Below are positions 2,701 to 41,289 of a DNA stretch of 64,000 bases, in pieces. Position 1 is the stretch's first letter. Each line of letters opens with the position of its first letter. Both the position numbers and the translations under genes were made by a program. Source of the DNA: a virus; the IMG/VR virus record IMGVR_UViG_3300050821_017626, positions 32,262-96,261 of that record; one strand, 5' to 3'. The notes under the pieces were generated by a model that was not told the DNA's origin, ran no database searches, and saw only the letters and a program-made list of their open reading frames with translations.

Positions 2701-2943
2701 TCAGCCGACCTTTCGCCATGTGAGTGTTGACGCGGCCCGTGCCTCCTCCACTTCTTGACAGCGTAGAAGCTCTTCCTCGGTCGCAAGGCGGGCGACATAG
2801 GCGGTGCGGGGACCATGAGCGCCCGTGAGCATGTGGGCGCGCTTCTCGGCCGTCTCTTGGTCGTACAGATCGGGTGTGGCCATTCGGCGAATGAGCTTGC
2901 CCCCGGAGTAGAACTGCGCTTCAACGACGAAGGTCGGTTTCAT
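2701..2943 (-). CDS. Hypothetical protein (MKPTFVVEAQ...)
   Basis: ATGA overlap with the upstream 49-aa ORF. Confidence 0.6.
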   Translation of the reverse strand: MKPTFVVEAQFYSGGKLIRRMATPDLYDQETAEKRAHMLTGAHGPRTAYVARLATEEELLRCQEVEEARAASTLTWRKVG

Positions 2944-12208: not shown

Positions 12209-12847
12209 CAGTACCCCACAGCCGAATTGACAGAATTGACGTACTCGGGATCGCTCGTAAGAACCACGAACGCCCCCGCCTCGTCATTATCGAGTACCAC
12301 ATCAGCCAGAATAGTCTCATCTTCATTGAGCAGGTCGAGATAGACGTGAAGATCATCCTCCAGCAGTGCCAGACTGGCCTTCAAGTCACCAACAGTCAAA
12401 TATTTCATCAGCCTCTGTCCCTTCGAATCAAGCAGTTGTTGCAAACAACATACAATTCCAGATCGTTCAATCGCTGCCATCCCGTAAAATATTGTTCACC
12501 ACAGCGCAAACAAAGGATCAGGTTGGTTTCAGCTCTGGGGCTGGAGAACTTCTTCCAGAAGGTGCCACAGCGATCTTCCACAAGGTCCGAACAACTCATA
12601 ATGTCGTCGCCAGGGGCCAAGAGCAGGTAGCCGTTCACTCCTTCACCTCAAACTCCGACACGACATTCTCGGTTCGATCATAAACCCGAGCGAATCGATA
12701 CATACCTTCGCAGAGAATATTATTCGCCACACGCTCGGCGTCTTCTGCAGAGGCGAAGAGAAAAGGAGAGTGGGTAGTCTTGGTTCCGGGTGCAGGAAAC
12801 GGGTTCCAGGTCTCTCCGTCCATCGAAAGCCAGATTGTGTAATTCAA
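12208..12847 (-). other. Small ORFs 12208-12408 (LTVGDLKA family), 12408-12638, 12635-12847
   Basis: Coupled ORFs between the sigma factor and dut. Confidence 0.6.
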
Positions 12848-13362
12848 GGATTCACCCCCAGAGCGGCACGCAACTTCCGCGTTGCCTTGTAGACCACGTT
12901 GTAAACCCGCTTGCGCGTCACTCCTTCTGCAGTCGCCACCTCTTCTCCCGACATTCCTTCCAGGTAGATGAGTCGCATCATTTTCTGCTCGAACGGGTTG
13001 AGGGCCGACTGCAGGACCTGGTTCCAGCCTATTCGATCAACCAGTTCGCTGGAGAAGTCAGCCATCCGAGGCTCACCAACCTCCCCACAGAGGGATTCGA
13101 TCTGAACAACCTCAGCGCTGCGCTTCTGGCGCGATTTGTGGCGCCAGAAGTTTTTGATGGATGAGCCCGCACCTACATAAGCCACCGACTTCAACTGCTT
13201 GCCGGACTGTTTCTCTTCCGCGACTGACTGGAAAGCGCCGAGCAGCGCCTCTCCGATGAGGTCGTCGTAATCCGGGTGGTCGCCCCACCCTTTCAGGTGT
13301 GAAAGGGCGAGGCGCACGTATTCTTCCTGTTCCGGGGTAAGACCTACGGCACGGTAGCCCAT
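12844..13362 (-). CDS. Phage sigma-70-family (ECF-like) RNA polymerase sigma factor
   Basis: Region 2 DDLIGEALLG; region 4 LNPFEQKMMRLIYLEGMSGEEVA..EGVTRKRVYNVVYKATRKLR. Confidence 0.85.
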   Translation of the reverse strand: MGYRAVGLTPEQEEYVRLALSHLKGWGDHPDYDDLIGEALLGAFQSVAEEKQSGKQLKSVAYVGAGSSIKNFWRHKSRQKRSAEVVQIESLCGEVGEPRMADFSSELVDRIGWNQVLQSALNPFEQKMMRLIYLEGMSGEEVATAEGVTRKRVYNVVYKATRKLRAALGVNP

Positions 13363-13913
13363 CAGGACTTAGGAACAATGGAGAGGCCACCGTTGTTCGT
13401 CCAGGCCAGGAGCAGCCCCTTCGCAGAGACCACCTGCACGGCGGGAATGTGGGGCTGCGCCGCTACATGGGGAAGCACGATGGTTAGCCCTGTATCCGAC
13501 CAGCGGGTCACGGGCACGCCAATCGTGGTGTCATCGATCACTGACCCCATCGCGTCCCCAAAGCCAGTCCCTACCATCACGACCGTATCTCCCTCGCTGG
13601 CGCGAGTGATCCAGTTGTGATTCAGATCCTGATAGCCTTGGATGATCCCGGCGACCGGAGCAGTTCCCGTGATTACTGGGACAGAGGGAGCAGGGGGAAT
13701 TCCACTCCCGGTCACGACAACAGGAGTGAATGTCAAGGTTCCGGTCACGGTGTAGGCCACGCCTCCCACAGTGACGCTCTGGCTCACCTGAACCTGAATG
13801 GGGCTCGGAGGCGGAGGAGTAACCTGAATCGTCAGGGGGACCGGAATCGGGGCCGCAAAGACCAGGGCACAACTCACGAGAGACAGGAAAAAGCAGTTCA
13901 AAATGTGTTTCAC
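13362..13913 (-). CDS. Exported protein with IPT/TIG-like domain
   Basis: GTG start and signal peptide (KHILNCFFLSLVSCALVFA); GDTVVMVGTGFG...VTRWSDTGLTIVLP. Confidence 0.65.
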   Translation of the reverse strand: MKHILNCFFLSLVSCALVFAAPIPVPLTIQVTPPPPSPIQVQVSQSVTVGGVAYTVTGTLTFTPVVVTGSGIPPAPSVPVITGTAPVAGIIQGYQDLNHNWITRASEGDTVVMVGTGFGDAMGSVIDDTTIGVPVTRWSDTGLTIVLPHVAAQPHIPAVQVVSAKGLLLAWTNNGGLSIVPKS

Positions 13914-15046: not shown

Positions 15047-15283
15047 TCATGGCCGACCCTTCATCGCCGCGTCCCGGTAGGTATCGGCTGCCTTGCGACC
15101 TCGCTTTTTGGCCCTGATCGAGCCCGATCCAGGCGGCATCGCGCCATCACTCCCCGGAGCTGCGCCGGTCTTTGCCGACAACTCCGTTCCTGGCTGCCAG
15201 GAGCCAGCAGGCCCATCTTGGTCCAAGACGTTAACACATTCGGTGAGACCGGACCAGTCTACCGCGAAATCAAACTCTTCCAT
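15047..15283 (-). CDS. Small acidic-leader/LxQ/basic-tail protein (putative capsid internal protein)
   Basis: MEEFDF...VLDQ|DGPAG...KKRGRK. Confidence 0.65.
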   Translation of the reverse strand: MEEFDFAVDWSGLTECVNVLDQDGPAGSWQPGTELSAKTGAAPGSDGAMPPGSGSIRAKKRGRKAADTYRDAAMKGRP

Positions 15284-15284
15284 G

Positions 15285-15551
15285 TTATCCCTCCGCCGGA
15301 AGCCGCTTTTGACGGATCACCTTGAAACCGTGACCCTGTTCGCGGAACCAGAAGATATCGTTCACCGCGTTGTGTATCTCGTAGATAAGCACCCCGCGTT
15401 CTACAGGCGTGAGGGCCATGGCGCGATCACATGCCATCCAGGAATCGAGGTAGCGATTGAGCACCCCGTCCAACGCCTGGCCGCTGTCCCACAAATCCCG
15501 GAACAGGGGGTCCTCCGCCCGCATCTCCTCCAGGTGTTCTTGAAAGGTCAA
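15285..15551 (-). CDS. Hypothetical protein
   Basis: ORF within the operon; GGAGG upstream. Confidence 0.6.
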   Translation of the reverse strand: MTFQEHLEEMRAEDPLFRDLWDSGQALDGVLNRYLDSWMACDRAMALTPVERGVLIYEIHNAVNDIFWFREQGHGFKVIRQKRLPAEG

Positions 15552-15555
15552 GTCG

Positions 15556-15771
15556 CTACGCCTCCTTCAGCCGGCTAGGCTTCTTCGCATCCTTGAGGGC
15601 CAGAGCCCCTTTCTTGCGCAATTTGGTGGCCGGCGGGTTGTATTGCTCTCCGCTGGTTCGAGTTACCATGCGCCCCATCGTGGGAGAGATTGGATTTCCG
15701 CCGCCTGGGATGGAATCAGGAAAGACGTTATCCTGGTACAGGTCTTCGAAGGAGGGCCACTCGAACATCAC
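15556..15771 (-). CDS. Small acidic-leader/LxQ/basic-tail protein
   Basis: FEWPSFEDLYQ|DN...KLRKKG. Confidence 0.65.
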   Translation of the reverse strand: MMFEWPSFEDLYQDNVFPDSIPGGGNPISPTMGRMVTRTSGEQYNPPATKLRKKGALALKDAKKPSRLKEA

Positions 15772-16043
15772 TCTTCCTCCTGAAAATGGGTAGCATTCGG
15801 ATGATGCTCGTGCTTATGTAGAGTCGGCATCGGCGGCATCATCTTGGCTTTACGCTCCAAATGCTTGCGCATTGCCTTTCCACCGCGAACGTGGAAGTTT
15901 CCAGGGCTGCCGTAAGGGATGCCCGTGAGGCCATCGCGATTGAAACCCTGGTCGCCCCCAGCTTCGGTGCGCTTTTTCCCGTTGGCCTGATAAAGGTCGG
16001 CTAGGTCGTCGGTGCCAATCTCAAAATCGGTTCCAAGTTCCAA
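15768..16043 (-). CDS. Small acidic-leader/LxQ/basic-tail protein
   Basis: Probable TTG start; DFEIGTDDLADLYQ|ANGKKR...RKHLERKAK. Confidence 0.6.
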   Translation of the reverse strand: MELGTDFEIGTDDLADLYQANGKKRTEAGGDQGFNRDGLTGIPYGSPGNFHVRGGKAMRKHLERKAKMMPPMPTLHKHEHHPNATHFQEEE

Positions 16044-16236
16044 TTTGGACCTTCTTTCGCGGCAGTTTGGCCGTCTTCTTCGCATCCACCCGGAGATCAA
16101 CTGCAGTTGGTGACAGGCGCGGGCGTCCTTTGGCCCAGGCAGGAAAGGCGAATCCGGCATCTGAGTAGTTGCGCAGCCGGTCTAATTGGTCGGTGTCCTG
16201 CTGCAGGCAAGGCATACCAAGTTCGAACTCTTCCAT
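16021..16236 (-). CDS. Small acidic-leader/LxQ/basic-tail protein
   Basis: MEEFELGMPCLQQ|DT...KKTAKLPRKK. Confidence 0.65.
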   Translation of the reverse strand: MEEFELGMPCLQQDTDQLDRLRNYSDAGFAFPAWAKGRPRLSPTAVDLRVDAKKTAKLPRKKVQIGTWNRF

Positions 16237-16415
16237 TAGTCTACCCTCTCGGCCACTTCTTCGACGTGAATGATGTCGTTTATCTTCAGGATGTGATCGG
16301 TTCCCGTGCGATCTCTAATTACTAACCATTGGCCGTAGCGACCTTGGATACTTCCTTGCAGTGGCTCGGAATTGGTCAGGGAGAGCCAGACGAGGGTAGA
16401 AGGAATTAACTTCAT
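16236..16415 (-). CDS. Sm/Hfq-like fold small protein
   Basis: LVWLSLTNSEPLQGSIQG...WLVI...HILKINDIIHV resembles Hfq VSIYLVNGIKLQGQI...VYKHAISTV. Confidence 0.5.
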   Translation of the reverse strand: MKLIPSTLVWLSLTNSEPLQGSIQGRYGQWLVIRDRTGTDHILKINDIIHVEEVAERVD

Positions 16416-16813
16416 GAGTGGTTCTTGGCATCCCAAGCAGACATCATTCCGTCACCGATCTTAGATAGATTCTCTCGAACGAACTGCCGGAACTCATCGC
16501 GGCTTCCATCTCTGCCCAATAGGCCCTGCGCCAGTGCAAGAACATGAATGGCGATAGCGTCACGATTTTTCTGGTCTGCAGATTGCCACACAGCGAGTCC
16601 GTTACCGAGTGCCTCCAGGTCCGTTTGTGCCTTACTGCCCGTTAACTTCTCCGCTACCCGATTGGCCAATTCTTCTTGTGCTTTGTCAGTGAGAACTGCA
16701 TAGACAGTTGATCCTATTGATGCGTTTATTCCACCCAATCTGGGGGCTGGGAGCGTATTAACATCCTCGAAATAAACCGAGCCACCGGAGAATTCGAAAT
16801 TGTTACCTGCCAC
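16412..16813 (-). CDS. Hypothetical protein
   Basis: 133-aa ORF coupled within the operon. Confidence 0.6.
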   Translation of the reverse strand: MAGNNFEFSGGSVYFEDVNTLPAPRLGGINASIGSTVYAVLTDKAQEELANRVAEKLTGSKAQTDLEALGNGLAVWQSADQKNRDAIAIHVLALAQGLLGRDGSRDEFRQFVRENLSKIGDGMMSAWDAKNHS

Positions 16814-16816
16814 AAT

Positions 16817-17032
16817 TTATCCTTTCGATGCAGAATTCTGCGGTACCTGTAACTTACCCTTACGCTTCTTGCGGCCGTTGTAGGAAGGGATTGAACCACC
16901 TGCACCAGGAGCAATGCCAGTGCCTGCTGCAGAGACTGAGGTTACCCCGCTTGCGCCCGTAGGCCCCGCACCTGTTCCGGCACCATCCTGGGACAGATTG
17001 GGCATCACAAGTTCGAAATCATCGAGCGGCAT
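16817..17032 (-). CDS. Small acidic-leader/LxQ/basic-tail protein
   Basis: MPLDDFELVMPNLSQ|DGAG...GRKKRKGK. Confidence 0.65.
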   Translation of the reverse strand: MPLDDFELVMPNLSQDGAGTGAGPTGASGVTSVSAAGTGIAPGAGGSIPSYNGRKKRKGKLQVPQNSASKG

Positions 17033-17201
17033 TTTTCTTCCTCTTTTTCTTTACTTTGGACATCTTTGCTAGATCATCAGTGCTTAAGCCGTTGCTTGGT
17101 AGTTTTCCCCCATCAGCAAAAGCTCCCGCTCCCCCCAGCGGCGGAGGAAGGTTGTTGGCGTCGCTCTGGTAGAGGTTAGTGTAGTCAGGGTACTCCATCA
17201 C
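17019..17201 (-). CDS. Small acidic-leader/LxQ/basic-tail protein
   Basis: MEYPDYTNLYQ|SD...KVKKKRKK. Confidence 0.65.
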   Translation of the reverse strand: MMEYPDYTNLYQSDANNLPPPLGGAGAFADGGKLPSNGLSTDDLAKMSKVKKKRKKNAAR

Positions 17202-17300
17202 TTGCTGCTCCCGCCCGGTGTGCCGAAAATCTTAGTGAAAATAAATAATAAGAAATAGACGATGTAGCCGCCGATGGTCGCCAGGATACGCATATCACTT

Positions 17301-17728
17301 CTAACCTTTCTGACCATTATTTTCTTCGCCGCCAAAGCATGGATCTTGGCGATGGCAAGGAACTGCTGTTTGGTCGCCGCAACGGAGACACTCTAGGTAC
17401 CACTCTGCGGGGTGGTGTTCCCACCACTGGCCCCACTTGAGTTGCCAATCACAGCCGACCCACCGGCAGAGAAAACGCCACATCAGATCGCCCTCTCCAA
17501 TCGGATTTTCAGATCCGGTATTTCTCCGTCGATTGCTTTCTTCAGGTTCTCAAGGTAATCCAGCCGACATTGAACCGCCTGGGCTTCGGAGTGAAACGCG
17601 TTTATGCGTATCTTAACTCCGAACGGCCCTGTGTCATCATAGACCATGAACCAGCCATTGCGACCGGGTACTGCATCTACCTCATAGATACGTGGCCCAT
17701 CGACGAGCCATAGTCGTTCCTTGCTCAC
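17301..17728 (-). other. Small ORFs 17301-17483 (Cys/Trp-rich) and 17483-17728
   Basis: Coupled ORFs. Confidence 0.55.
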
Positions 17729-17913
17729 TTGCGTGTATTGAGCGGGTCAGAAAGGTCGACAGCGCGCATTCCGAACTTGGTTACCGCTGGCTTTTTGTCC
17801 TTATTCTTCGTTCCCTTCGCCACTGTTTTCAGGGGCTTATCCTCTTTCGAAGGAGGGCCATCGTTGAAATCGTCGTCCTGCGCGGCGTAAATGTCCTTGA
17901 TTCCAATTTCCAT
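17725..17913 (-). CDS. Small acidic-leader/xxQ/basic-tail protein
   Basis: MEIGIKDIYAAQ|DDD...KGTKNKDKK. Confidence 0.6.
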   Translation of the reverse strand: MEIGIKDIYAAQDDDFNDGPPSKEDKPLKTVAKGTKNKDKKPAVTKFGMRAVDLSDPLNTRK

Positions 17914-17914
17914 A

Positions 17915-18244
17915 TCACTTATCCTCCCTTGAAGTGTTCGGCTGACCAGTCATCAAACTGCGGAGCGGCTTGGGCTCCATCGGATCGTTCTTCTTCTTTC
18001 GAGCCTTACCCCGGCCTTTGATAAAGCCCTCTACCTGCCCGTCCGCATTGCCACTGGGGCCTAGCGTCCCTAAGTATGGCAGGTTCGCATCCCCTTTCGG
18101 TTCTTGCTGATCCAGCCATGGTTTGTATTCTTCCAGGTCAATCATACCCACCAAGCGCTTTCTTCGGGGTCCCACATAGGACGCCCTTTTTCGCATGGCT
18201 CGTTCCAAAAGTCCCAATGGCTTTTTAGAAATCGGAATAGCCAT
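17915..18244 (-). CDS. Small LxQ/basic-tail protein, first gene of the operon
   Basis: IDLEEYKPWLDQ|QE...KGRGKARKKK. Confidence 0.6.
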   Translation of the reverse strand: MAIPISKKPLGLLERAMRKRASYVGPRRKRLVGMIDLEEYKPWLDQQEPKGDANLPYLGTLGPSGNADGQVEGFIKGRGKARKKKNDPMEPKPLRSLMTGQPNTSREDK

Positions 18245-18268
18245 CTCATAGTTTATGTCCCTCGTTAT

Positions 18269-18288
18269 ATTGTACCCTTTTTCGGCAA
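18269..18288 (-). promoter_or_regulatory. Short-spaced promoter TTGCCG-N8-TACAAT
   Basis: Same architecture as the sites at 25836, 36994 and 54793. Confidence 0.5.
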
Positions 18289-18907: not shown

Positions 18908-19039
18908 GAAAGCTTGGGCTCCTTTCGAAACGGAAAATATACAGGGCATTATACCGTCCAAAGGCAAGGTTTGGCAACGTGTTTTTGCATATAGAATACG
19001 CGCACGCACGCATGTCAGGTGAGGGAGAAAATACACCTA

Positions 19040-19560
19040 CACTCTCGTTGAAAAATAGAGGACCAGTTTTGGTAGCATAAGCCATCTACGCTGATTATCT
19101 TACCAACGTATAAGGATACGCCTCACGCCTGAAAAACTCACTTTTAAAGGCGTCATTGTCGTAGTTGTAATAATATCGTCTGACATAACACTTTTACGAT
19201 ATGGGGTATGTTACAGTTGTAAGAGAGTAAAAACAGGTGATTCGGGAAAACACGGTATTACTGAGTAAATACAACTATCGTTTTAGGCACGGATTATGCC
19301 TAAAACGTTAAGAGTAAATAACCACAAAACTGACATTTTCTGATTCCGCTTTGGGAGGACCTGTTTTCACGGATTTTCTCAATTTTGTGGTTAAAGGGAA
19401 CTAACGGCCGTGCCTGAAGTGGGTTGTAACGATTGGGGATAGACACAAAATTGAGGTGCATGTTGATTCCCACAGCATAGCGGGATGTTTTCTCTTCGCC
19501 TAGCATGCGCGCATACGCGCGAGGGTTGCCAACCGCTCTGCAGTTGGCTACAATGCGGAT
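19040..19560. other. AT-rich non-coding divergence region with hairpins (candidate origin or control region)
   Basis: No credible ORF; CGTTTTAGGCA/TGCCTAAAACG inverted repeat at 19279-19307; AGGCACG motifs. Confidence 0.45.
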
Positions 19561-22970: not shown

Positions 22971-23065
22971 CTGTTTCCCTCTCCACGATCTAACTTGTGC
23001 CGTTATTGGCTACACTCATAGTAGCATAAACCGTGCCAAATAAAGGGTTTGGAGCTATATTACTG

Positions 23066-24841
23066 ATGGCAAAACCAAATACGAATCCGGGAACAGATAT
23101 CTCCCCCATCCCTAGCCAAACTCCGTTGCCAACCATTGGTTTCATCAGGAAGCTTACGCAACGCATTACTACCATACTGCTTGGCCGGGACATAACCACG
23201 TATCCACAGGTCCTTGGGAACACATCTGAGACTGGCGCTTCCGACGCAAGCTACCAAAGCTTCACGAACCCTTTCTGGAGAATTAACTACGAAAGGCGTT
23301 CCATAGCCATGGATTTGAGGGATCAAGACATGAACGACCCTCTTATTTCCACGGCGCTAGATGTGATTGCGGACTGCGCCACAGGCATGGAAAATCCTGC
23401 AGAAGACGCCTTCATGTGGCAGTTCGATCAGAACAACCCTGCTGCCGAGAAAATTCTGCAAGAGATGAAGATACGCACGGATTTGGGGCATGAATGTTGG
23501 CGTATCGTTCGTGGGTTTGTCCGTGACGGGGAAGAGTTTCGTGAGGTCGTGGCGGATGAATCCTATACCATACGTCGCTTTAAGTTCCTCCCCAATTATC
23601 AAGTGACCCCTTCTCTTGACCCTTACGGCAATAAAAGTCCGGGGTGGGAGCAACGCTTAGACGGTGCGAATTTCGGGCGCCCTATTCTGTTTGCCGAATG
23701 GCAGATATGCCCTTTCATCTATGGAGCCCGACGAGGGTACTACGGAACGGGCTTGATGATGCCAGCCCGAAGGACCTGGAAACGCCTTACCAAGATGGAA
23801 GACGGTATGGCGATGGCTCGTATGATACGGGCTTATGATCGTCTTGTTCACCATATTCCTGTCAAAGAGGAGTGGGACGAGCGGCGGCAACTCGATAAGG
23901 TGCGCAATTACTATCAATCTATACTCCGTAGGCGCGGCATTGATCAGGACAACAACCTATTCTGGCGTGAGAATCCCTATCAGGTAGAAACGGACTTCTT
24001 TCTTCCGCAGGACGGCAGCGAGAGAGCCAAGATAGAGATTCTTGAGTCGAAGAACAATCAGTTGATGAATATCGACGACGTTCTTTATCATCAAGCGTTA
24101 TTGTTGGCTAGAACAAAGGTGCCCGCAAAGTATCTCAATTTGGTACGTAAGTCAGGCGCCCTCATCGATGCCAACCTTTCCGCTGAGGACATTCAGTTCG
24201 CTCGCACCCTTCGCCAAGTGCAGGCCGTCCTCCGCCAAGGACTTCTTCGTCTAGCCCACTACGCACTTGCGTTTCAGGGTTATGATGCTGACGCCATCGG
24301 AGTAGGGGTGATTCTTCCAAAGATTTCAACGGAAGATCAACTCCGCGACGCTAAAATTCAGTTCACCGCCTCGCAAGCAGCTCTTACCTTTTCACAGGTA
24401 CTTCCCCACGGCCTGCCACCCGACCTGATTGCTAACAAGTACATGTCGCTCGGCCCCGACGACAAAAAGATCCTCGCCGAATGGATCGCCGCCGGAGACG
24501 AGACCCATGCCGAACTCCATCGCCAGATGGGCATCATCATCCCTGATAGCAAAATTCCAGGCGCCCCTGGAGCCCAGAACTTCAAACCCTTCGCCAAACC
24601 CGGCATGGCCGGCGATGATGGGGGCGACGACGAGGATGGAGATGGCGGAGACGATGCTACCCAGAGCCAGGTAACCCTGGATCAGGTGGCGCAATCGCTG
24701 ACCAATCTGCAACTTCTGGCGCAGCAGGAGATGGAGAAGCGGGGCAGCCGGTTCAAAGTAGGTCGTGCCGAGCGTCTCGACAACACCCGGCGGATTCTCC
24801 AAGAAATCATGGATGAGGGCCATGCTGGCAGCACTCTCTAA
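23066..24841 (+). CDS. Portal protein (T4 gp20-like)
   Basis: DPLISTALDVIAD, YYGTG, WKRLTKMEDGM..AR..RA.DR, TDFFLP, EDIQFARTL match T4-type portal motifs. Confidence 0.88.
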   Translation: MAKPNTNPGTDISPIPSQTPLPTIGFIRKLTQRITTILLGRDITTYPQVLGNTSETGASDASYQSFTNPFWRINYERRSIAMDLRDQDMNDPLISTALDVIADCATGMENPAEDAFMWQFDQNNPAAEKILQEMKIRTDLGHECWRIVRGFVRDGEEFREVVADESYTIRRFKFLPNYQVTPSLDPYGNKSPGWEQRLDGANFGRPILFAEWQICPFIYGARRGYYGTGLMMPARRTWKRLTKMEDGMAMARMIRAYDRLVHHIPVKEEWDERRQLDKVRNYYQSILRRRGIDQDNNLFWRENPYQVETDFFLPQDGSERAKIEILESKNNQLMNIDDVLYHQALLLARTKVPAKYLNLVRKSGALIDANLSAEDIQFARTLRQVQAVLRQGLLRLAHYALAFQGYDADAIGVGVILPKISTEDQLRDAKIQFTASQAALTFSQVLPHGLPPDLIANKYMSLGPDDKKILAEWIAAGDETHAELHRQMGIIIPDSKIPGAPGAQNFKPFAKPGMAGDDGGDDEDGDGGDDATQSQVTLDQVAQSLTNLQLLAQQEMEKRGSRFKVGRAERLDNTRRILQEIMDEGHAGSTL

Positions 24842-25826
24842 TCGCCAACTCACTCTGCTCTATCAGCAACTCGACCTAACGCGCCGCCAATACCACCTTC
24901 TGCTGCAGTCGCGTCCACCGCGAAACAAGAGACGGGAACGCGGAGCCTGGGTTAGGCCAGGCTTGAGTGAGAGTGCCCTGGCCCTGGAGACGCGCCTCCT
25001 GAAGAGCTACAACAATCTTGGCAGCGATCTGCTGAAGTCGCTCTCCGGTCCGATGGATGATATATCCTCGGGCCGGATGCTCCAGGCCAAGAAGATCGGC
25101 ACCCATCGCCAGGAAGAGGAAGACGCCCTGAAGTTCTTCGGGGTGGATGAGGACGAGATCGACCAGCCGGTGGACAAGAACCGTCTCCCGGCTCTTCTCG
25201 CGCTCCTTGCCCTCTGGAAGACACGCCACTTGGCGATCAGTGATGCGGCCATCTCGGAGGAGTTTCAGCGAGGGCGAACTAAGGCGCTGGCCGCTGCAAA
25301 GCGGCCCAACGCTTCCTCGCAGCCGGACACGGCCGCGCTGGAACATGCGGTTCTGGCGAAGTTCGAGGGCGATATCGACCGGCTGGAGGCTGGGCTTCGA
25401 GATGGGACTGTAAGGTCGTATGGCATTCAGTGGATCTTGGAAAACAGCGCAAGTATCGGCCAGGCGGCTGCCTATACGAGGAGGCTCCTAGACGCCGAAT
25501 CCTTCCGCGTTTCGATGCTGGCCGAAGCGGCTACCTGGGATGCGTTTCGCAGTGGGGAAAGAGCTGGCGCTGTGGAGGCGTCAAGAAGCATCCTCGCTGC
25601 GCTCGGCCACCCTTTTCCGCAGTTGGCCACCGATTTGACGGACGATGAAAAAGAAGAACTGCCGCGCTACGCATGGTCTGGGCCACAGGATTCAGTAACC
25701 TGCGGGCCTTGCAGCGGTCATGCCGGAATTGTAGTTTACGCTCTTTCTCTCGATGCTCTTCCTGACCCAACCTCAATATGTGATTACGGTCGTAATTGTA
25801 GACATTCATGGGAGATTGTCTCCTGA
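24822..25826 (+). CDS. Head morphogenesis / minor capsid protein (Mu gpF/SPP1 gp7-like)
   Basis: Follows the portal; C-terminal DSVTCGPC...C..GRNCRH. Confidence 0.65.
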   Translation: MLAALSNRQLTLLYQQLDLTRRQYHLLLQSRPPRNKRRERGAWVRPGLSESALALETRLLKSYNNLGSDLLKSLSGPMDDISSGRMLQAKKIGTHRQEEEDALKFFGVDEDEIDQPVDKNRLPALLALLALWKTRHLAISDAAISEEFQRGRTKALAAAKRPNASSQPDTAALEHAVLAKFEGDIDRLEAGLRDGTVRSYGIQWILENSASIGQAAAYTRRLLDAESFRVSMLAEAATWDAFRSGERAGAVEASRSILAALGHPFPQLATDLTDDEKEELPRYAWSGPQDSVTCGPCSGHAGIVVYALSLDALPDPTSICDYGRNCRHSWEIVS

Positions 25827-25920: not shown

Positions 25921-28905
25921 ATGCCTCTCCCCGAGAGAACCGTAAAAATAGTCGATGCTAGTGGCAACGACATTAATTCACTGAATCCGCTTCCCACAAC
26001 GGGCGGAGGCGGCGGTGGTGGTGGCACGTCTCAGGCGGACAACAGCACCTTTACTGAAGGGACTACAAGCGTCACCCCGATTGCCGGTGAATACAATACC
26101 TCGGCAGGCGCGGCCACCTCGGGAAAAGCGGCAGCGGTTCAGATCACCCAGAATCGTGGCCTCCACATCAATCTCCGCAACGCGGCCGGGACGGAAATTG
26201 GCACGGTGGCCAACCCAGTGCAGGTGGCCGGAATCAGTGGCGGCGGGTCCTCTTCGGTTTTTGCCTCTCAGGTGGGAACCTGGAATGTTGGCATCACGGG
26301 CACAGCAGCCGTTACCCAGTCGGGAGGCTGGACGGTCTCCGCCAACCAGGGAACCGCAGCCGCTAAGTCTTCCGCGTGGCCGTTTATCCTTACCGACAGC
26401 GTTCAGAATCAGGCGGGTATCACTGCAGCCGGGGCGCTCAAGGTCGACGGCAGCGCTGTTACGCAGCCGGTATCAGGGACGGTGACAGCCAACGCTGGCA
26501 GCGGAACTTTCACTGTTGGTGGAACGGTGACGGCAAATGCGGGTTCAGGCACTTTCGCCATTCAGGCCACTGCTGGGGCGCCTGCCTCCGCGCAGCTTTC
26601 TGATGGTGCTGCCTTCTATGTTGCCGCAAAAACGGGACAACTCCCGACCGCTTTGACGGGCAGCGGCAATTTGAAGGTATCGCTGGCAGAAAGCACGGCA
26701 ACGCAAGCCGTTAGCGGGACCATCACGGCTAACCAGGGAACGGCGGGTGGATCTTCCTGGCCGGTAGCCTTGCCGGGCACCGTTTCTGCGGTCAACTCCA
26801 CGACCGTTACTCTCCCTAGCAGCAGCGTTTTTACCGGAACGTCCGAAGACATTTCCGGCTTTGCCTCTGTGGCCGTTTCGGTATTTACCGACCAGAACAG
26901 TGCGGCCGGCGGTCTTTCCCCACAGTTCTCCTCAGATGGCACCCACTGGGATTTCGCTGGCTCCCACACGATCTCTTCTTCGATTGGACAGGTATTTACC
27001 TGGCCGGCACAGGCTCGTTTCTGGCGAATTGTCTACACGAATGGAGCACAAACGCAAGGAACGTTCCGCCTGCAGACGGTTTATCATCCTGTTGAGATCA
27101 GTCCGGCTACCCGCTACACTTTGCAGGATGGGGATGCTAACGTTAGCACCATGCGGTTCGGTGCCAACCTTTGTGCCCTGAACACTTCGTCACAGTGGGA
27201 TCGGATGCGGGGGTCGGTTACAGGAGGCTTGTGGGTTCAGGGTCCGGCGGTAACCGGAGCGCCGGTTGCTGGGAACCCAGTCTATGTGGGTGGTAAGGAT
27301 GGGAGTGGAAACCTACAACCGTTCACCATTGCCAACAGTCGCCTCGACGTAAACGTTGGTAAAATTCCCGGCACCATTTCCGCAGTCAACTCCTCGACGG
27401 CAACCTTGACCTCCGGCTCCGCTTTTACTGGCACTTCGGAAGATGTGTCGGGATATGGGTCGATCACGATCAACGTTTTCGCGGATCAATCCTCGGCCGC
27501 AGGTGGTCTCTCTCTACAGTTTTCTTCAGACGGGACCCATTGGGATGTCTCAATGGGCCTTACTGTAACTTTGAATGTGGGAGCGTCCTACACTGTTGCT
27601 CCCGAGGCTCAGTTCTTTAGGGTTGTATATACGAACGGCGGCACCAACCAGGGAACATTCCGGCTGCAGACGGTTTACCACCAGACAACGGCTCAGCAGT
27701 ATACATTCTTCCAAGATGTAAACGCCTCCATAAACCCCACTGCAGCGGGTCAGCGAGTGATGGCTGATCTTCTTATTCAAGATCCCGTGGGCGGGGTGAC
27801 GAACCGGGCGCGAGCGGCGATTGCGTTGGTAGCGGGCGTGGGTGGTGGAGCGCACCTGGGGCAGGCAGCGGCTCTTTACGATATCAGTTCCACTAAATTT
27901 TGGCCGATGGAGAATACTCCTTCGGTGACGGCTACAACGGGGCAGAACCTGCTGGGCGTCGGGCCTTGCCTTTGGGATCTTGTGGGCACCACGAACTTCG
28001 TCAAGCAGGCCGGTGATGGTTCCGGGAGGACCATGGTGGTGGGGCCGGCGGCTATCGGCGCGGCGGCAGCAGCGAACCCGGTTCTTCCAGGCATAACTGA
28101 TGCCAGCGGCAACGTGCAGTATGTCAAGCAGACTACGGCAGTTACCGGGACGACGGGTTTGGGGCTGGCGGCGGCGGGACCGTGCCTTTGGGATCTTGTG
28201 GGCACCACGAGCTTTGTGAAGCAGGCGGGAGATGGGTCGGGCCGGGCAATGGTAGTTGGTGCGGCAGCGGCGGGTTCAGCGGTGGCAGGGAACCCGGTGC
28301 TCCTGGCCGGCAGTGATAATACCAACGCTCAAACTCTGTCCACGACAACCACTTCTGGCGCAGCTATCCCCAACAACGGCAAGGGCATCTTGGCGACTGC
28401 CTTGTGCAGCTTTCATAGCTCCAGCACCTATTTCCCAGCGGGCGATTTCCAGGCAGATGGAAACAACTCACAGGGGATGATCGGGGCGCAGCCTCTCATT
28501 TATAATGGCGTCAACTGGGATCGGCCCCGGAACAACGTCGATGTTACTCTGCTGGCCTCCGCCGCGCGCACTACCACGCAGACGAGCGCGGATATCGTGG
28601 CCTATAATTGCCAGGCCATTATCTTGACTCTTGATGTCACCGCTACGGGTGGCACGATAAGTTTGACACCGACGATCAATTATAAAGACCCCGCAAGCGG
28701 GAAGTACATTCAATTGCTGGCCGGAACCACCGTGGCGGCAACAGGAACGACAACGTATGTGATCGATCCGAGGTTGGTGAGCGGAACCCCTCCCTGGACG
28801 AAGACGGTTCCTTCGGCGTTAGGTAGGATCTTCCAGGTGGTAATTACGGTTGGAAATGCGAATTCACAGACCTACAGCGTAGGTTATACGCTGGTGCCCA
28901 CATAA
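25921..28905 (+). CDS. Large Gly/Thr/Ser/Ala-rich virion structural (fibre/decoration) protein with internal repeats
   Basis: Two copies of an approximately 105-aa domain (SAVNS..T.TL...FTGTSED...QFSSDGTHWD...FRLQTVYH) and two of GPCLWDLVGTT.FVKQAGDGSGR. Confidence 0.7.
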   Translation: MPLPERTVKIVDASGNDINSLNPLPTTGGGGGGGGTSQADNSTFTEGTTSVTPIAGEYNTSAGAATSGKAAAVQITQNRGLHINLRNAAGTEIGTVANPVQVAGISGGGSSSVFASQVGTWNVGITGTAAVTQSGGWTVSANQGTAAAKSSAWPFILTDSVQNQAGITAAGALKVDGSAVTQPVSGTVTANAGSGTFTVGGTVTANAGSGTFAIQATAGAPASAQLSDGAAFYVAAKTGQLPTALTGSGNLKVSLAESTATQAVSGTITANQGTAGGSSWPVALPGTVSAVNSTTVTLPSSSVFTGTSEDISGFASVAVSVFTDQNSAAGGLSPQFSSDGTHWDFAGSHTISSSIGQVFTWPAQARFWRIVYTNGAQTQGTFRLQTVYHPVEISPATRYTLQDGDANVSTMRFGANLCALNTSSQWDRMRGSVTGGLWVQGPAVTGAPVAGNPVYVGGKDGSGNLQPFTIANSRLDVNVGKIPGTISAVNSSTATLTSGSAFTGTSEDVSGYGSITINVFADQSSAAGGLSLQFSSDGTHWDVSMGLTVTLNVGASYTVAPEAQFFRVVYTNGGTNQGTFRLQTVYHQTTAQQYTFFQDVNASINPTAAGQRVMADLLIQDPVGGVTNRARAAIALVAGVGGGAHLGQAAALYDISSTKFWPMENTPSVTATTGQNLLGVGPCLWDLVGTTNFVKQAGDGSGRTMVVGPAAIGAAAAANPVLPGITDASGNVQYVKQTTAVTGTTGLGLAAAGPCLWDLVGTTSFVKQAGDGSGRAMVVGAAAAGSAVAGNPVLLAGSDNTNAQTLSTTTTSGAAIPNNGKGILATALCSFHSSSTYFPAGDFQADGNNSQGMIGAQPLIYNGVNWDRPRNNVDVTLLASAARTTTQTSADIVAYNCQAIILTLDVTATGGTISLTPTINYKDPASGKYIQLLAGTTVAATGTTTYVIDPRLVSGTPPWTKTVPSALGRIFQVVITVGNANSQTYSVGYTLVPT

Positions 28906-32301: not shown

Positions 32302-32677
32302 TTTCACTGATTTTAGTATTACCCTTACCAGGGGAGACACCCGCCGGTTCCGCTTCACGGTCAAAGATCCCTCGACCGGGGCCTTGGCGGATATCACGAC
32401 GTGGCAAAAATTCTGGGTGACCGCTCGCTACAATACCTGGGACAGCAACGCCGCGCCGGTCTTTGTGCTAACCAGTGACAGCCAGGGATTGGCGCTGATT
32501 GATCCGGTGAACGGCCTGGTCGAGGGCACGCTTTCCCCCACTCATACTGCCGGGCTCACTTCACAGGAGTGGATCTTATACGGAGATATTCAGGGTAAAG
32601 ATGGCGCCGGCAATATCTGGACTATTTCCAGGGGCCACTTTATCGTTTTGCCGGATGTGACTTTCGTTACCAGTTGA
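32294..32677 (+). CDS. BppU-N-like Ig-fold structural protein
   Basis: LTRGDT..F.FTVKD...DIT...G.V...LSP..TA.L...YGDIQ...G.F.V.PDVT. Confidence 0.65.
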   Translation: MADFTDFSITLTRGDTRRFRFTVKDPSTGALADITTWQKFWVTARYNTWDSNAAPVFVLTSDSQGLALIDPVNGLVEGTLSPTHTAGLTSQEWILYGDIQGKDGAGNIWTISRGHFIVLPDVTFVTS

Positions 32678-32688
32678 GGGTGATACGG

Positions 32689-35600: not shown

Positions 35601-36531
35601 GGCGACAACGAATGGCAGTGGGTCAGTTGTCAATACTTATACCTATACTCCTACGGGGGTGTCTACCCAGTTAGGAAATGGTTCTGGAACGCCCTTTCAG
35701 TTCAATCGAACCTACAATACCGGCGCGACTGGAGTCTATCAGTCTGGGTCAAGAATCTACGATCCAACCACTGGCAACCTTTTGGGGAGGCCAGGTGGTG
35801 TTCCCCATTCCCAGGGAACGCCTTCTGTTCCCAACCCAATGGCGAGCGTCCAAGGATGGAACCCGCCTAGTCGAAAATTGGTAAATCGCGTCCTGGGAAT
35901 GATAGGCTCAACGGTACTTTTAGGAGCAGCCGGAGATTTCCCAGAAGTTAACTCCGTAGGCGGAGTGAATGCGCCTGACATAACTATCGCTCCCTCAAGA
36001 GCGCCAACGACTGTCAGTGTAGCTGGCCGTAGTGTAACTTTACCTCCATCCAATAGAACTATCCTGCCATTGCCGGCGCCGCCGCCCCCTCCTGCCGGTC
36101 CTCACTATGGGTTGGGATTGAGCAATGCAGGGGTGGATGCGATGGAGCATGGGTGGGGTGGACTGGATGATTTCCGGGCACAAGTGGGCGGATGGTCGCC
36201 CGGCAGCCGGGGAGGACCGTGGACGATCCCGACGAATTTGGCTGGCGCAGGAAAGATTAGCTTTGAACTGGCGGGTCTTAACTGGCAGACGGCGGTCTTA
36301 GCGGATGAAGATATAATGTTTTCCAATAATGTGACGAATGTTGAGTTCCAGATGTCTATTTCCCCTTCCATGTGGGATCGGGTTGAGTGGTACCTTTATG
36401 GGGTCAGAGTTGATAATCCGTTTGCGATGAGCCCTATTCCCACGTCACAAGCAACTCCTCCCCCCGGATATGCCGGTGGACCGGGAAGTGATCCGTGGGG
36501 CAACTATCCGAGCGGGCCAGGAACCGAGTGA
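32689..36531 (+). CDS. RHS/YD-repeat protein with signal peptide and putative C-terminal toxin-like domain
   Basis: N-terminal hydrophobic signal; DUF6531-like VDTGTG...GPFG; many TDPLG..T.Y.YD repeats; core end TGVYQSGSRIYDPTTG; Pro linker then C-terminal domain. Confidence 0.9.
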   Translation: MVSKIRALLVIILLTFFVSGAAGAYTPFYEMTAPTRLGSMTSLLGGHVDTGTGAFCYRNHLSTVLGYINLNSDIIFNSQDRSAGPFGIGTSTSYDWFVVKSVLWPGQPWVLIGPGNRHFIFDQGGSGNFVDPRDAQFLGASLSFNGPPSGRLCTLTFKNWERWEFDLSGGLVTIHTHWTDYGWNTINITRNANGFPVDITQSTSPTWRGIEYTYGGSPLTCTNVTNWYNWVSNASPGITRPWNFTYSGGNTQIATISDPANRISRLNWTGYTRSDGALLPLISSMVDNRGNTAVSITYDSSGRVTNTTLPVSGSLAFSYSAPLGSDGYTQIVQANGDTKRNNFQWLTAHHGYLITSTTDVTLGETTTIEHSAVSSVYPTITTYLPSAVVDYLGHRSTVSWDTKLGNLLSMTYPAPTGGTATLSYQYDAVYNEVAVSTDPLGNRSTRVINPHTGDVTSTTDPLGNVTSHTYNSAGACLSTTDPLGYTTSYSFDTNGVLVSTVDALNHTTSYTRDVLGQLTNTTDALGRMISFVYNPSGTIQSKTALYGPNPITESSTYDANDNRISSTSPNGTVWSYSYDSANRMVQSTDPLGNSKHWIYNPDNTQASYQDAIGQRFENTYDSAGRLTLQNFKLGNGSIESSITYTYDPTTHLVSSYTDSAIGSPTSLTRDSFLENTSVVQPYGTIGQTYDILGRALTKTVTGQAGVTYHYNSLGQMDTETQNGQTTTFLYDKVGRLIQQNFPNGVINKRTLDGNGRVIRATSTSGASTISDTVYTRDAAGNISTSQENGGAVFAYSYDYANRLTQISQVGDSRGDGYPSYGFQYDVVGNKVKDFSNPPGVQYSSNLYSYDSANNLVAINGFGVYNDANGNPYQAQNRFGGSFIANYTWDVRGRLVAFSYGSQVYSFKYFSSDIPAQQVINGTTTNFVRTGSDILADITNGITTTTLNSPVFGQPLNRGGMWQSTNGTGSTKATTNGSGSVVNTYTYTPTGVSTQLGNGSGTPFQFNRTYNTGATGVYQSGSRIYDPTTGNLLGRPGGVPHSQGTPSVPNPMASVQGWNPPSRKLVNRVLGMIGSTVLLGAAGDFPEVNSVGGVNAPDITIAPSRAPTTVSVAGRSVTLPPSNRTILPLPAPPPPPAGPHYGLGLSNAGVDAMEHGWGGLDDFRAQVGGWSPGSRGGPWTIPTNLAGAGKISFELAGLNWQTAVLADEDIMFSNNVTNVEFQMSISPSMWDRVEWYLYGVRVDNPFAMSPIPTSQATPPPGYAGGPGSDPWGNYPSGPGTE

Positions 36532-37824: not shown

Positions 37825-40800
37825 ATGCCCTATTCCTCGAAAAGTGAATTACCGGCTGCCGTAAAGCGCTTGCCAGGTCATGGCCAGCGCGTTTTCAAAT
37901 CGGCGTTTAATGCGGCGCACCGCCAATACTCGGGTGATGAAACGACGGCCTTCAAAGTTGCCTGGGCAGCGGTGAAGCACAAATACAAAAAGTCCGGCAA
38001 TGAATGGGTTGCCAAACAGGACGCTGGAGGAAGAACGGTGCATCAACTTCTTGCTGATCTAAAGACGTTTTATATGCGAGCCTTGGATCAGGCGGAAGTC
38101 GGTGACATGGTGCGGATCAAGGGTGCCATGGATCTGATCGACCAGGTAGCCCTCAATCCCGACAAACACGAGCCGCAGAACGATTTCCAGCAACTGCAGC
38201 AACTGCAAGGGAAGTGTGTTCTGGCACTTGGGTTCGATCTGACCCAGCACATGGGGTATACGCCGACTGTTCCTCACGAGCATGATTTCGCTGGCAGCCT
38301 CAATCACCGTATCCGCTGTGTTTGTAAAGCCGCCAAAGAGCAGATCCCGGAGTATCTTGGTCCTTGGGGTTTCGTCCTGGCCGTCTACCCCGATCACATT
38401 GTTACCTGCGCCGAGGACGACTATCTGGAAGGTTCAGATAAAGACTATTGGTGCGTGGAGTATGAGTTTGACGAGGATTGCGGCGAGGTAACTTTCGGCG
38501 ATGCGGAGCCAGTTGACGTGGCTACGATTGTCGTCAACAAGGGCGAGATGTCCGCGATGGATGGAGATGACGACGATACCCAGAGCCAGGATGCCCTTGG
38601 CCAAATGGAAGGCAAGGATGGTTCTGGCGAATACGGAAACACCAAGCCGAGCAAGGGGGAGTCCAACAAATCAGACGGCGATGGCCAGGATTTCAAAACT
38701 GACAATGGCCAGAAGTTTGGCAAGGCTGCCTACCTGATTATCGGCGATCCGAAATCCCCCTCTACCTGGAAGGTGCGCGTGGAAGAGACACCGGGCCATA
38801 TCACCGTTCCGCAGTTGGGCCGCGCTTATGCCGCGCTCACCAAGGGGTTTCGGGGTAACACGGTTCAAGCGGGGTCTGACGCGAAAACTGCTGCGCTTGC
38901 GAAGCTCAAGGGCCTCAACAAGACCCACGGCGGCGAGTGGCCGGGAGAGCAGGATCAGGGGGACATCCCTGATTGGCTGGCGCAGGGTAAGGACCCGCCG
39001 GGCGGCGATACGGAGCTTGTGCAGACGAACTCGGTGCAACTGCAGTGGGATGGGGAGAAGCATGAGACGGGCGTGATGCGGGTTAGTGGTGTGGCGACCC
39101 GCGCCAACGTGGTCAACTCCAAGAATGAGGTTTATCCGCTCGACGTTTGGCAGGACAACCTTCCTCGGCTGCAGCGGCTGGCGCAGGGCGGTAAACTCGT
39201 GGGCGAGTGCCAGCACCCTGCAGACGGCCGGGCTTCTCTTGATCGCACCTGTATCAAGTACGAAAAGTTGTGGTTGGACGGGAACGACCTGAAGTTCGAA
39301 GGGCTCATTCTTCCCACTGAGCCGCACGGCAAGAATATTCAACTCTTAATCCAGAACAACGTGGCGGTAGACCTTTCCAGCCGGGGGCGCGGCACCCTGA
39401 AGCAGGGGGATTGGGAAGGCGTGACGGGCGTTAGTATCGTACAGCGCGGATTTCGATGTGACGCTTTTGATCCTGTGGTAGCCGGGGCTTCTCCTGGCTC
39501 CCAAATAACCGACTGGCAGATGCAGTCAGCGGACCACAACGATACGGAGGAAGACGTGGAAACGAAGGAGCTATTGGAGAAAATCGCAGCCTCCATGGAA
39601 ACAGTGGGATCGCTGGCTGCGACGGTCGCGAAGCAGGGTGAGATTCTTGCGGAGTTGGGCAAGACGAAGGAAGTGACGCAGGACAAGAACACTGAGCCGA
39701 CGGCGGATGAGGTTCGGGCACAGAAGTTGAATGCCTCGCTCAACAAGATGGCGACCCGCCAGCGCATCGAGGATCTGACGCAGGAAATCAAGGAGCGGCG
39801 CAAGTGGGGCCAGCAGTGGGTGAACAAGTATCGCCAACTGATCGAGAACGCCAAGCCGGAGACGGAGGAGGCGGTGGATCAGGCGGCAAGCCGCGCGGAA
39901 GAGATTGTCGAAGGGATTCTCGATCAGGCGCCCCATTTCCCTGGCAACGGGTTTACCGTGCAGGCGGACAAGGGCGAGCGAGGCTTCCGCAATGGCTCGG
40001 AGTTGCTGGACGATCTGGTCAAGGACTTGCCCGACACAGAACTGGCGCAGAGCCATCCTGATACGGTGTTCCGGCGCCGGGACGAGCAGGGTAATCCGAT
40101 CTTCCCTGGCCATTTCCGCACGCCGCGCCGGCAGATGCGCAAGTGGATGGAGAATATCGCTCGCCATCAGGACGCGAACTTCAACGGGCCGGGCGCGTTG
40201 AAGGAGCTGGTGCTGCTCTCGCAGGGTTACGATCCGAGCTGCACCGCTGATCAGGTGCTCTTCCAGGATTGTTCCGCAGCCGGGTCGACGACCGTGGGGA
40301 ACAGCGGCGCACCGCAGTCGGCCATCTTTATCTTCCCGCTGGTGCGGCGGGTCTTCCCGCAGTTGATTGCCACGGAGCTGGCCTCGGTGCAGCCGATGGA
40401 CCGGCCGGATGGCAAAATCTTCTTCCTCGACTCTTACCGGCAGAGCCCTGGCGTTGACTCAAAGGACAGTGCGGGCGCGACGGTGAGCGGGGAGATGCGG
40501 ATCGACCGGTCGGACTCGTTCAGTTCGAGCTACTCGAATAACCCTGGTGAGTGCCAGGCAGTCAACACCATTCAGCTTCGGTTGTCCTCGATCTCGGTGA
40601 CGGCGGATAACAAGAAGTTGCAGGCGGTGTGGACGATTGAGGAACTGCAGGACCTTCGGGCTTACCATGGGCTGGATGCTTCGCTGGAGTTGGTGGGTTC
40701 GCTCTCGCGCGAGATTGCGCTGGAGTGGAATGAGACGGTGCTCAACGAGCTTACTACTGGCGCTACCGGAGCAAATCTAACGTTTGGAACGACCAATCCT

Positions 40801-41289
40801 ACTGGCTACACGCAGAAGGAATGGGACGAGTACCTTTCGAGGATGCTCGACTCCGCAAGCGCACAGGTGTTCAAGAAGCGCCATGGTGATATTACTCATA
40901 TTGTGGCAGGGCCGGATGCTTGGGTAAAACTCGCAGCGACCTTCCGGGTGGGCACCCATCCGAGGGACGGAGCCAATCCTGAGCAGTATGCAGGGCTGAC
41001 TTTGACGCCGTTCATGCAGGGAACTTTGTCGAATGTCAAGACTTACAAGACAAGTTTCTGGTCTGGGGTCAACACCAATACGATTATGGTATTGCGCAGA
41101 GGGGCTGATTGGTCCGATACCCCTTATGTCTGGGCGCCTTATCTTGATTACGTTTCGCCCGTTCTGACTCTCCCGAATACATTCAACCAGAATCAGGGCA
41201 TTATGAGCCGGGTCGCTCACAAGGTTGTCGTTTCGGAAGCGATTGCCAACATCTCAATCCAGCAAGGGGTGACTGGAGTTCCTTTGTAG
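37825..41289 (+). CDS. Capsid polyprotein: ChaB domain, linker domains, T4 gp21-like prohead protease (about 39067-39525), scaffold, T4 gp23-like major capsid protein (about 40267-41289)
   Basis: ChaB PYSS.SELP..V..LP.H.Q..F..AFNAA...AWAAVK..YKK; protease GECQHP, SSRGRG, FDPV; capsid LVRRVFPQLIA.EL.SVQPM..PDG, KLQAVWT.E..QDL.AYHGLDA..EL, YVWAPY. Confidence 0.92.
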   Translation: MPYSSKSELPAAVKRLPGHGQRVFKSAFNAAHRQYSGDETTAFKVAWAAVKHKYKKSGNEWVAKQDAGGRTVHQLLADLKTFYMRALDQAEVGDMVRIKGAMDLIDQVALNPDKHEPQNDFQQLQQLQGKCVLALGFDLTQHMGYTPTVPHEHDFAGSLNHRIRCVCKAAKEQIPEYLGPWGFVLAVYPDHIVTCAEDDYLEGSDKDYWCVEYEFDEDCGEVTFGDAEPVDVATIVVNKGEMSAMDGDDDDTQSQDALGQMEGKDGSGEYGNTKPSKGESNKSDGDGQDFKTDNGQKFGKAAYLIIGDPKSPSTWKVRVEETPGHITVPQLGRAYAALTKGFRGNTVQAGSDAKTAALAKLKGLNKTHGGEWPGEQDQGDIPDWLAQGKDPPGGDTELVQTNSVQLQWDGEKHETGVMRVSGVATRANVVNSKNEVYPLDVWQDNLPRLQRLAQGGKLVGECQHPADGRASLDRTCIKYEKLWLDGNDLKFEGLILPTEPHGKNIQLLIQNNVAVDLSSRGRGTLKQGDWEGVTGVSIVQRGFRCDAFDPVVAGASPGSQITDWQMQSADHNDTEEDVETKELLEKIAASMETVGSLAATVAKQGEILAELGKTKEVTQDKNTEPTADEVRAQKLNASLNKMATRQRIEDLTQEIKERRKWGQQWVNKYRQLIENAKPETEEAVDQAASRAEEIVEGILDQAPHFPGNGFTVQADKGERGFRNGSELLDDLVKDLPDTELAQSHPDTVFRRRDEQGNPIFPGHFRTPRRQMRKWMENIARHQDANFNGPGALKELVLLSQGYDPSCTADQVLFQDCSAAGSTTVGNSGAPQSAIFIFPLVRRVFPQLIATELASVQPMDRPDGKIFFLDSYRQSPGVDSKDSAGATVSGEMRIDRSDSFSSSYSNNPGECQAVNTIQLRLSSISVTADNKKLQAVWTIEELQDLRAYHGLDASLELVGSLSREIALEWNETVLNELTTGATGANLTFGTTNPTGYTQKEWDEYLSRMLDSASAQVFKKRHGDITHIVAGPDAWVKLAATFRVGTHPRDGANPEQYAGLTLTPFMQGTLSNVKTYKTSFWSGVNTNTIMVLRRGADWSDTPYVWAPYLDYVSPVLTLPNTFNQNQGIMSRVAHKVVVSEAIANISIQQGVTGVPL

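Follow-up and report, generated by a model that had tools for sequence, protein, structure and literature searches.

The internal proteins of bacteriophage T4 (IPI-III) are small (~8, 10 and 20 kDa), basic and dispensable, with ~300 copies of each per head, and the internal proteins of the T-even phages at large are diverse and poorly conserved, their common part being an N-terminal capsid targeting sequence (CTS) of 10-19 residues (PMC9026906, PMC3012670). The T4 CTS docks the internal proteins to the core and is removed by the gp21 protease, and ten residues suffice for the packaging of a foreign protein (PMC9026906, PMC3012670), a use to which the T4 CTS has already been put (PMC9026906). 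The characterised proteases of the S77 family, T4 gp21, phiKZ gp175 and SPN3US gp245, all cut after Glu (PMC9026906, PMC10052503), and a text search of the literature returned no report of a Gln-specific prohead protease. Here we analyse a 64,000-nucleotide stretch of viral DNA (hereafter the window), the right-hand 64 kb, positions 32,262 to 96,261, of the 96,261-bp IMG/VR record IMGVR_UViG_3300050821_017626, whose completeness is estimated at 79%. It contains an operon of small genes, eight of which encode proteins with a short N-terminal leader ending in hydrophobic-x-Gln. We propose, with a probability of about 0.58, that these eight genes encode capsid-internal protein precursors that work like IPI, IPII and IPIII of T4, being targeted by their leaders and trimmed after Gln.

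The likeness to the T4 system is one of organisation. As in T4, small, basic and otherwise unrelated proteins with a shared short propeptide (9-22 residues here versus 10-19) accompany a T4-type head module, and the set is clustered, non-conserved and lineage-specific. Unlike in T4, P1 (the residue after which the chain would be cut) is Gln, so that the sites depart from the (L/I)-x-Glu rule of gp21, in agreement with the Gln sites of the clade's own presumed protease substrates; the leader is strongly acidic and does not resemble the T4 CTS in sequence; full disorder is predicted for the cargo, which has a Lys/Arg box; and there are eight paralogues rather than three. Because all sequence-level features are kept except P1 and the homology of leader and cargo, we class the eight as working like the T4 system and not as members of the IP family. 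The new elements are the Gln-type site common to the whole protease/capsid clade and the predicted disordered, polycationic cargo.

In the mechanism that we propose, the acidic/aromatic leader would attach its precursor to the scaffold portion of the core of the prohead, and the S77 domain of the phage's capsid polyprotein would then cut after the Gln of hydrophobic-x-Gln, as the comparative evidence below suggests. The released polypeptide, 48-72 residues long, Lys/Arg-rich and predicted to be disordered, would stay with the packaged DNA, which it may neutralise or condense and with which it may be ejected; an anti-defence role for the eight is speculation. Adenovirus pVII and pX/mu, small basic DNA-condensing core proteins whose precursors are trimmed by the virion protease adenain, offer an analogy only, with virus, protease fold and motif all unrelated.

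Eight small proteins with an acidic leader

About 14 tightly packed small genes run along the minus strand from 18244 to 15047. Eight of them are the open reading frames (ORFs) singled out by the initial annotation, which had placed them by their low (stop) ends; all eight exist, and all lie on the minus strand (members A to H, Table 1). A Shine-Dalgarno (SD)-like sequence stands 5-12 nt ahead of every start (8/8 members), neighbouring genes abut or overlap by 1-23 nt, and the encoded precursors have 59-91 residues (6.5-10 kDa). The start of member C is most likely TTG 16043, which we prefer because the longer ORF from ATG 16160 overlaps member D by 140 nt, while that of member H is ambiguous between ATG 18145, which makes the Gln residue 13, and ATG 18244, which makes it residue 46. 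With the starts so adjusted, the Gln is residue 11-22 in the eight.

The three-part layout that had been described for these proteins is confirmed. An acidic/aromatic leader, with a net charge of -1 to -6 and 1-4 aromatic residues, ends in hydrophobic-x-Gln, mostly followed by Asp, and the remainder after the Gln, a mature part of 48-74 residues, has a Gly/Pro-rich (more fully, Gly/Pro/Ser/Ala-rich) middle and then a Lys/Arg box. These remainders carry a net charge of +3 to +7 and are composed to 38-70% of Gly/Pro/Ser/Thr/Ala/Asn, with hydrophobic residues making up only 9-24%. In an alignment of the eight members, the only invariant columns are Met1 and the Gln. The middle segments are predicted to be disordered, and member A as a whole is predicted to be so from its ESM Atlas model, which has a mean predicted local distance difference test score of 0.37. 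No member has a Pfam, PHROG or GenBank-phage match, nor homology to IPI, IPII or IPIII, and the operon neighbours are likewise without annotation, save for a small zinc-ribbon-like protein. One of these neighbours (16412-16813, minus strand, 133 residues) lacks the N-terminal motif; it starts with acidic and aromatic residues and contains, further in, a VWQ↓SAD that resembles the C-terminal site of the protease, QMQ↓SAD (arrows mark the presumed cut).

To match the composite criterion that we applied, a small ORF must have hydrophobic-x-Q and then D, S, A or Q among its first 26 residues, its leader must be acidic and include an aromatic residue, and the rest of the protein must be basic. Of the 786 small ORFs of the 96-kb record, 11 match, and eight of the 11 fall within the 3.2-kb cluster; the remaining three arise from start codons inside unrelated genes, e.g. 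sigma factors. Shuffled genomes yield 3.5 +/- 2.2 matches, scattered, and the clustering in the record is far beyond chance. The Glu version of the same criterion gives scattered background only, in all genomes. Since the Leu, Tyr, Gln and Asp codons of the motif vary between members, it is the peptide that is under selection, rather than a repeat in the DNA. A fourteen-column hidden Markov model of the leader scores its eight training sequences at 10-16 bits and all else at <=5 bits, a separation that is circular and that misses the members found in a related phage (see below). Elsewhere in the window, a 60-residue ORF (2701-2883, minus strand) has a leader-like N-terminus ending LYDQ↓E, but its remainder lacks both the basic charge and the richness in Gly/Pro; this could be a stray protein that bears the leader, or a chance likeness.

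Glutamine at the predicted sites of the head protease

By its genes the phage is a distant T4-like, uncultured one, to which the nearest cultured phage shows only ~28% identity. It has a T4-type head module (gp20 portal, gp21-type protease, gp23 capsid protein): the portal gene (23033-24841) matches Portal_T4 with E=1e-19, and Peptidase_S77 and Gp23 are found within a single ORF. The latter encodes a polyprotein in which a ChaB domain is followed by the S77 protease, a coiled-coil, scaffold-like stretch and the Gp23 domain, and which is the presumed source of both the cutting activity and the docking core. The Peptidase_S77 match scores 39.8 bits against a Pfam cut-off of 27, and 23 sequences share the catalytic His (HP motif) and Ser (SSRG motif), which line up with those of T4 gp21 (PDB 5JBL). 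S77 is the only head-protease family found in the record, from which S78 and ClpP, also looked for, are missing. The domain thus resembles T4 gp21, phiKZ gp175 and SPN3US gp245 in its Pfam match, its catalytic His and Ser, a C-terminal site of the self-cleavage type and sites at the capsid protein N-terminus; it differs from these characterised enzymes in that the homologous substrate sites are Gln in the whole clade and in its fusion to ChaB, scaffold and capsid protein. The polyprotein fusion is present in four contigs and many cluster representatives. A protease-capsid fusion occurs in dozens of 50%-identity cluster representatives (among P0011-P0090; 800-1225 residues), Gln-type and Glu-type alike, and is therefore older and wider than the Gln switch.

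The suggestion that hydrophobic-x-Q marks the domain boundaries of the polyprotein proved correct, for instance at Q415, Q582 and Q829. The first residue of mature T4 gp23 maps without gaps to polyprotein residue ~822, with LSQ↓G (Q815) on one side and LFQ↓D (Q829) on the other; the record's own copy has no Glu in the capsid-site region around this residue. An exhaustive HMMER search gave 1,656 representatives, and we compared the best 150 of 1,656 at the capsid site. Among these, the closest ~25 have hydrophobic-x-Q followed by A/S/D/T, placed 24-28 residues before a conserved FPL(V/I)RR, whereas the more distant ones and T4 have hydrophobic-x-E. In a tree built on the capsid core with the site columns excluded, 20 representatives form a monophyletic clade (support 95) in which 20/20 have hydrophobic-x-Q, whereas the rows outside it have hydrophobic-x-E. 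The Glu and Gln labels change 3 times on this tree versus 19.5 times when labels are shuffled, and the residual changes are, by eye, labelling noise.

The same pattern is seen at the ends of the protease. Its C-terminal end is hydrophobic-x-Q↓S in 15/15 Gln-type sequences, compared with ITE↓S in T4 and mostly hydrophobic-x-E in the Glu-type relatives, and at its N-terminal junction the closest Gln-type sequences share L-(V/T/A)-Q↓(T/S). Three positions homologous to T4 gp21 cleavage sites are Gln across a monophyletic clade. A further substrate is likely to be the protein encoded next to the portal, in which L-x-Q↓(S/A) stands right before a conserved basic start (RRERGAW-like), with unconserved sequence upstream, in the record under study (G000) and in two of the contigs and genomes of relatives, designated G001-G009, namely G001 and G005. 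A second site in this protein, (M/L)-x-Q↓AKK, is common to G000 and G001.

Taken by its substrates, the protease is strongly suggested to have undergone a Glu-to-Gln switch of specificity. A candidate S1-pocket position, close to the N-terminus of the protease, is the residue that follows a conserved Tyr-Pro (or Tyr-Thr; window ~39100-39130), which is Lys/Arg/Gln in 6/6 aligned Glu-type sequences and T4 and mostly Leu/Thr/Ala in the Gln-type clade. Because the outlying Gln-type sequences P0045 and P0054 keep Lys and the clade member P0018 has Arg, this residue is only a lead.

Relatives, promoters and neighbouring genes

Four further members of the family occur in G001, a 63-kb contig whose capsid polyprotein is 57% identical to that of the record. 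All four are minus-strand genes whose distance upstream from the portal gene is 4.7-10.7 kb, a place syntenic with that of the operon in the window, 4.9-8 kb upstream of the portal gene; each gene has an SD, and the leaders finish in LYQ↓D or LY-x-Q↓D. Three orthologues were added by a profile search that covered 5.8 billion proteins: P0006 is orthologous to one of the G001 members, P0009 shares 61% identity with member B and keeps LYQ, and P0010 shares 67% identity with member A, keeps LDQ and has 24 middle residues identical. P1 is Gln in 12/12 paralogues from the two phages and in 3/3 of these orthologues. Within the pair of member A and P0010 the leader, apart from LDQ, is the most diverged part, and the 24 identical residues indicate that the mature part is constrained too.

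The potyvirus NIa protease of tobacco etch virus (TEV) recognises the pattern E-x-L-Y-x-Q↓S/G. The G001 leaders (L004 1686-1937, 5528-5782 and 5784-6017), with an acidic residue, L-Y-x-Q and then D, resemble it; the protease fold is unrelated, and the likeness would be at most convergent.

Other searches drew blanks. The family profile (A1/A4) gave no matches in the records of relatives, the proteins being too short and too diverged; viral-contig scans with the 133-residue operon neighbour and with member A returned nothing; and of two metagenome scans neither gave anything new, the second finding G001 again. In G002, G003 and G005-G009 we found no acidic-leader/basic-tail proteins and no clustered leader matches, and the N-terminal 4-mers shared within each genome were noise only. 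In G003, a Glu-type relative in which protease and capsid protein are encoded separately, two neighbouring ORFs that follow the head genes (L017 37826-38676, plus strand) have acidic/aromatic leaders that end AFE↓S and ILE↓D, one of which resembles the leader of member A; these two ORFs may be Glu-type counterparts.

The operon is headed by a sigma-70-like promoter. Its class, TTGCCA-N17/18-TAnAAT, occurs six times in the window versus 0.56 expected, and nine times in the record, where it precedes the small-protein operon, the portal gene, two tail-region operons and three operons of the non-structural arm. The initial annotation had pointed to a promoter type shared with the structural operons; the sharing stands for the portal gene and the two tail-region operons, but its value as a structural marker is lost with the copies in the non-structural arm. 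The class is a general sigma-70-like one and not a mark of structural genes, and since it also precedes non-structural operons, it says nothing on late expression. The copies often have a CCAA...TTGG inverted repeat inside the spacer, and two of them end 4-6 nt ahead of an ATG (19561 and 23066), which suggests leaderless mRNAs at these places. No copy of TTGCCA-N17/18-TAnAAT was found in G001.

A phage sigma-factor gene (12844-13362, minus strand) lies at the far end of the minus-strand gene string that holds the operon. Within the structural module, an HNH endonuclease gene (45474-46757) is inserted on the opposite, minus strand, and a 1285-residue RHS-repeat protein with a signal-like N-terminus is encoded at 32674-36531 (plus strand). 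Two genes after the portal, a 994-residue protein (25921-28905, plus strand) has a weak, below-cut-off match to diphtheria toxin C (ADP-ribosyltransferase) over residues 732-787 (E=4e-5) and may be an Alt-like packaged enzyme.

Table 1. Positions of the operon members and of the head-module and promoter features in the window, unless another contig is named
Feature	Position	Strand	Description
Member A	15047..15283	-	78 residues; Gln codon 15218-15220; VLDQ↓DG
Member B	15556..15768	-	70 residues; Gln codon 15733-15735; DLYQ↓DN
Member C	15768..16043	-	91 residues from TTG 16043; Gln codon 15987-15989; DLYQ↓AN
Member D	16021..16236	-	71 residues; Gln codon 16198-16200; CLQQ↓DT
Member E	16817..17032	-	71 residues; Gln codon 16988-16990; NLSQ↓DG; Gly/Ala/Thr-rich middle
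Member F	17019..17198	-	59 residues; Gln codon 17166-17168; NLYQ↓SD; KKKRKK box near C-terminus
Member G	17725..17913	-	62 residues; Gln codon 17878-17880; YAAQ↓DD
Member H	17915..18145	-	76 residues from ATG 18145, 109 from ATG 18244; Gln codon 18107-18109; WLDQ↓QE
Sigma-70-like promoter	18948..18977	-	TTGCCA-18-TATAAT at head of operon; 11/12 consensus matches; SD and ATG follow at 18907
Copies of the promoter class	18948-18977, 19527-19554, 23034-23061, 46814-46841, 51380-51407, 52361-52387		three more in left arm
Head-module protein next to portal	24762-25823; G001 12791-13819; G005 27062-27874	+ (window)	L-x-Q site
Polyprotein	37825..41289	+	ChaB - S77 protease - scaffold-like - Gp23; 1154 residues; true start ~37825; Pfam domains
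S77 protease domain	39025..39534	+	catalytic His and Ser conserved; flanked by LVQ↓T (Q415) and QMQ↓S (Q582)
Gln 829 of VLFQ↓D	40264..40266	+	predicted N-terminal maturation site of capsid protein

Putative internal proteins and the alternatives

Several observations weigh against reading the eight as internal protein precursors. Their cleavage, packaging and function are all things that we infer from sequence. The motif is short, and a matrix trained on one genome ranks a single true member first in the other, in both directions; across genomes, the motif alone is no detector of members, while the composite criterion is. No such proteins were found in five complete Gln-clade genomes (G005-G009; capsid 46-59% identical) or in G002, and no residue of the protease is convincingly tied to the Glu-to-Gln change. 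Small non-structural genes surround the operon, which is on the other strand from the head genes and has a general sigma-70-like promoter. Member G is the weakest of the set, with Ala at P3 and a leader charge of only -1, and the start of member H is possibly 33 residues further upstream. The absence from the five complete genomes makes the family a lineage-restricted add-on rather than a system of the clade; such restriction is expected for internal proteins, yet it leaves only two genomes as witnesses.

The surroundings of the operon, small genes without annotated function together with a sigma factor, and its host-type promoter would suit proteins that are never packaged and act within the cell in host takeover or nucleic-acid binding, their N-terminus being a partner-binding motif or an autoinhibitory patch that masks the basic tail and, the motif being short, resembling a protease site by coincidence. 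We regard this as unlikely, although it is the least unlikely of the alternatives: it gives no reason why the invariant residue should be Gln, the very residue that stands in place of Glu at three homologous protease sites of this clade, nor why the distance of the motif from the start is always 9-22 residues, as in T4 propeptides. The comparative evidence for targeting and cutting would serve equally well for prohead core accessory proteins like T4 gp67/gp68, which would be targeted and cut, act in head assembly and then be degraded or expelled, and the core proteins of T4 are also small gp21 substrates (PMC9026906). Against this stands the presence of a single extra hydrophobic-x-Q site across the eight mature parts, on account of which the proteins would not be fragmented; their strong positive charge, moreover, suits contact with DNA, and a set of eight paralogues that is dispensable and confined to one lineage is more in keeping with accessory cargo than with parts needed for core assembly. 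We hold a core accessory role to be somewhat less likely still.

Many precursors with a shared leader and variable cores also recall the ribosomally synthesised and post-translationally modified peptides (RiPPs), in which case the leader would be the recognition sequence of a modifying enzyme. A radical S-adenosylmethionine enzyme gene is absent from the record, however, there is no recognisable maturase among the operon neighbours, and the cores are long, basic and predicted to be disordered, and not patterned in Cys/Ser/Thr; a RiPP-like origin is therefore very improbable. Short, low-complexity ORFs in a genome of 54% GC might even be chance reading frames or an annotation artefact, the least probable explanation of all, and one that we reject: an SD stands at each gene, the genes are tightly packed on one strand, orthologues are 61-67% identical and include a 24-residue identical block, a second phage has four paralogues, and the clustering statistics speak against it.

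Capsid-internal protein precursors remain our preferred reading of the eight. The parts of the T4 comparison that stand are the T4-type head, the Gln sites at homologous positions and the small, basic character of the proteins, like that of T4 internal proteins; those that fall are the promoter as a structural marker and the notion of a clade-wide system. In its widest form, the proposal is that a whole uncultured T4-like clade retuned the P1 of its S77 protease from Glu to Gln, and that one sub-lineage matched this with a novel acidic leader for capsid targeting, with LYQ↓D as its core, borne by an expanded set of eight internal proteins that are disordered and protamine-like; we put the odds of this at about even.

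If this proposal is true, the S77 (gp21/assemblin-like) protease family would gain its first Gln-specific member, and the leader would be a matched targeting tag, easy to recognise, from which one could read off the proteins that these uncultured phages pack into their capsids. The idea of the T4 internal proteins, a few folded inhibitors, would be widened to take in a whole array of disordered polycations, a point relevant to the handling of DNA charge in the head, and filling the head with DNA-bound cargo would have a second way besides folded internal proteins. The tag would be a natural packaging signal orthogonal to the T4 CTS, and, together with its protease, the Gln-type pair would be a ready-made orthogonal system for the packaging of foreign proteins into T4-type capsids.

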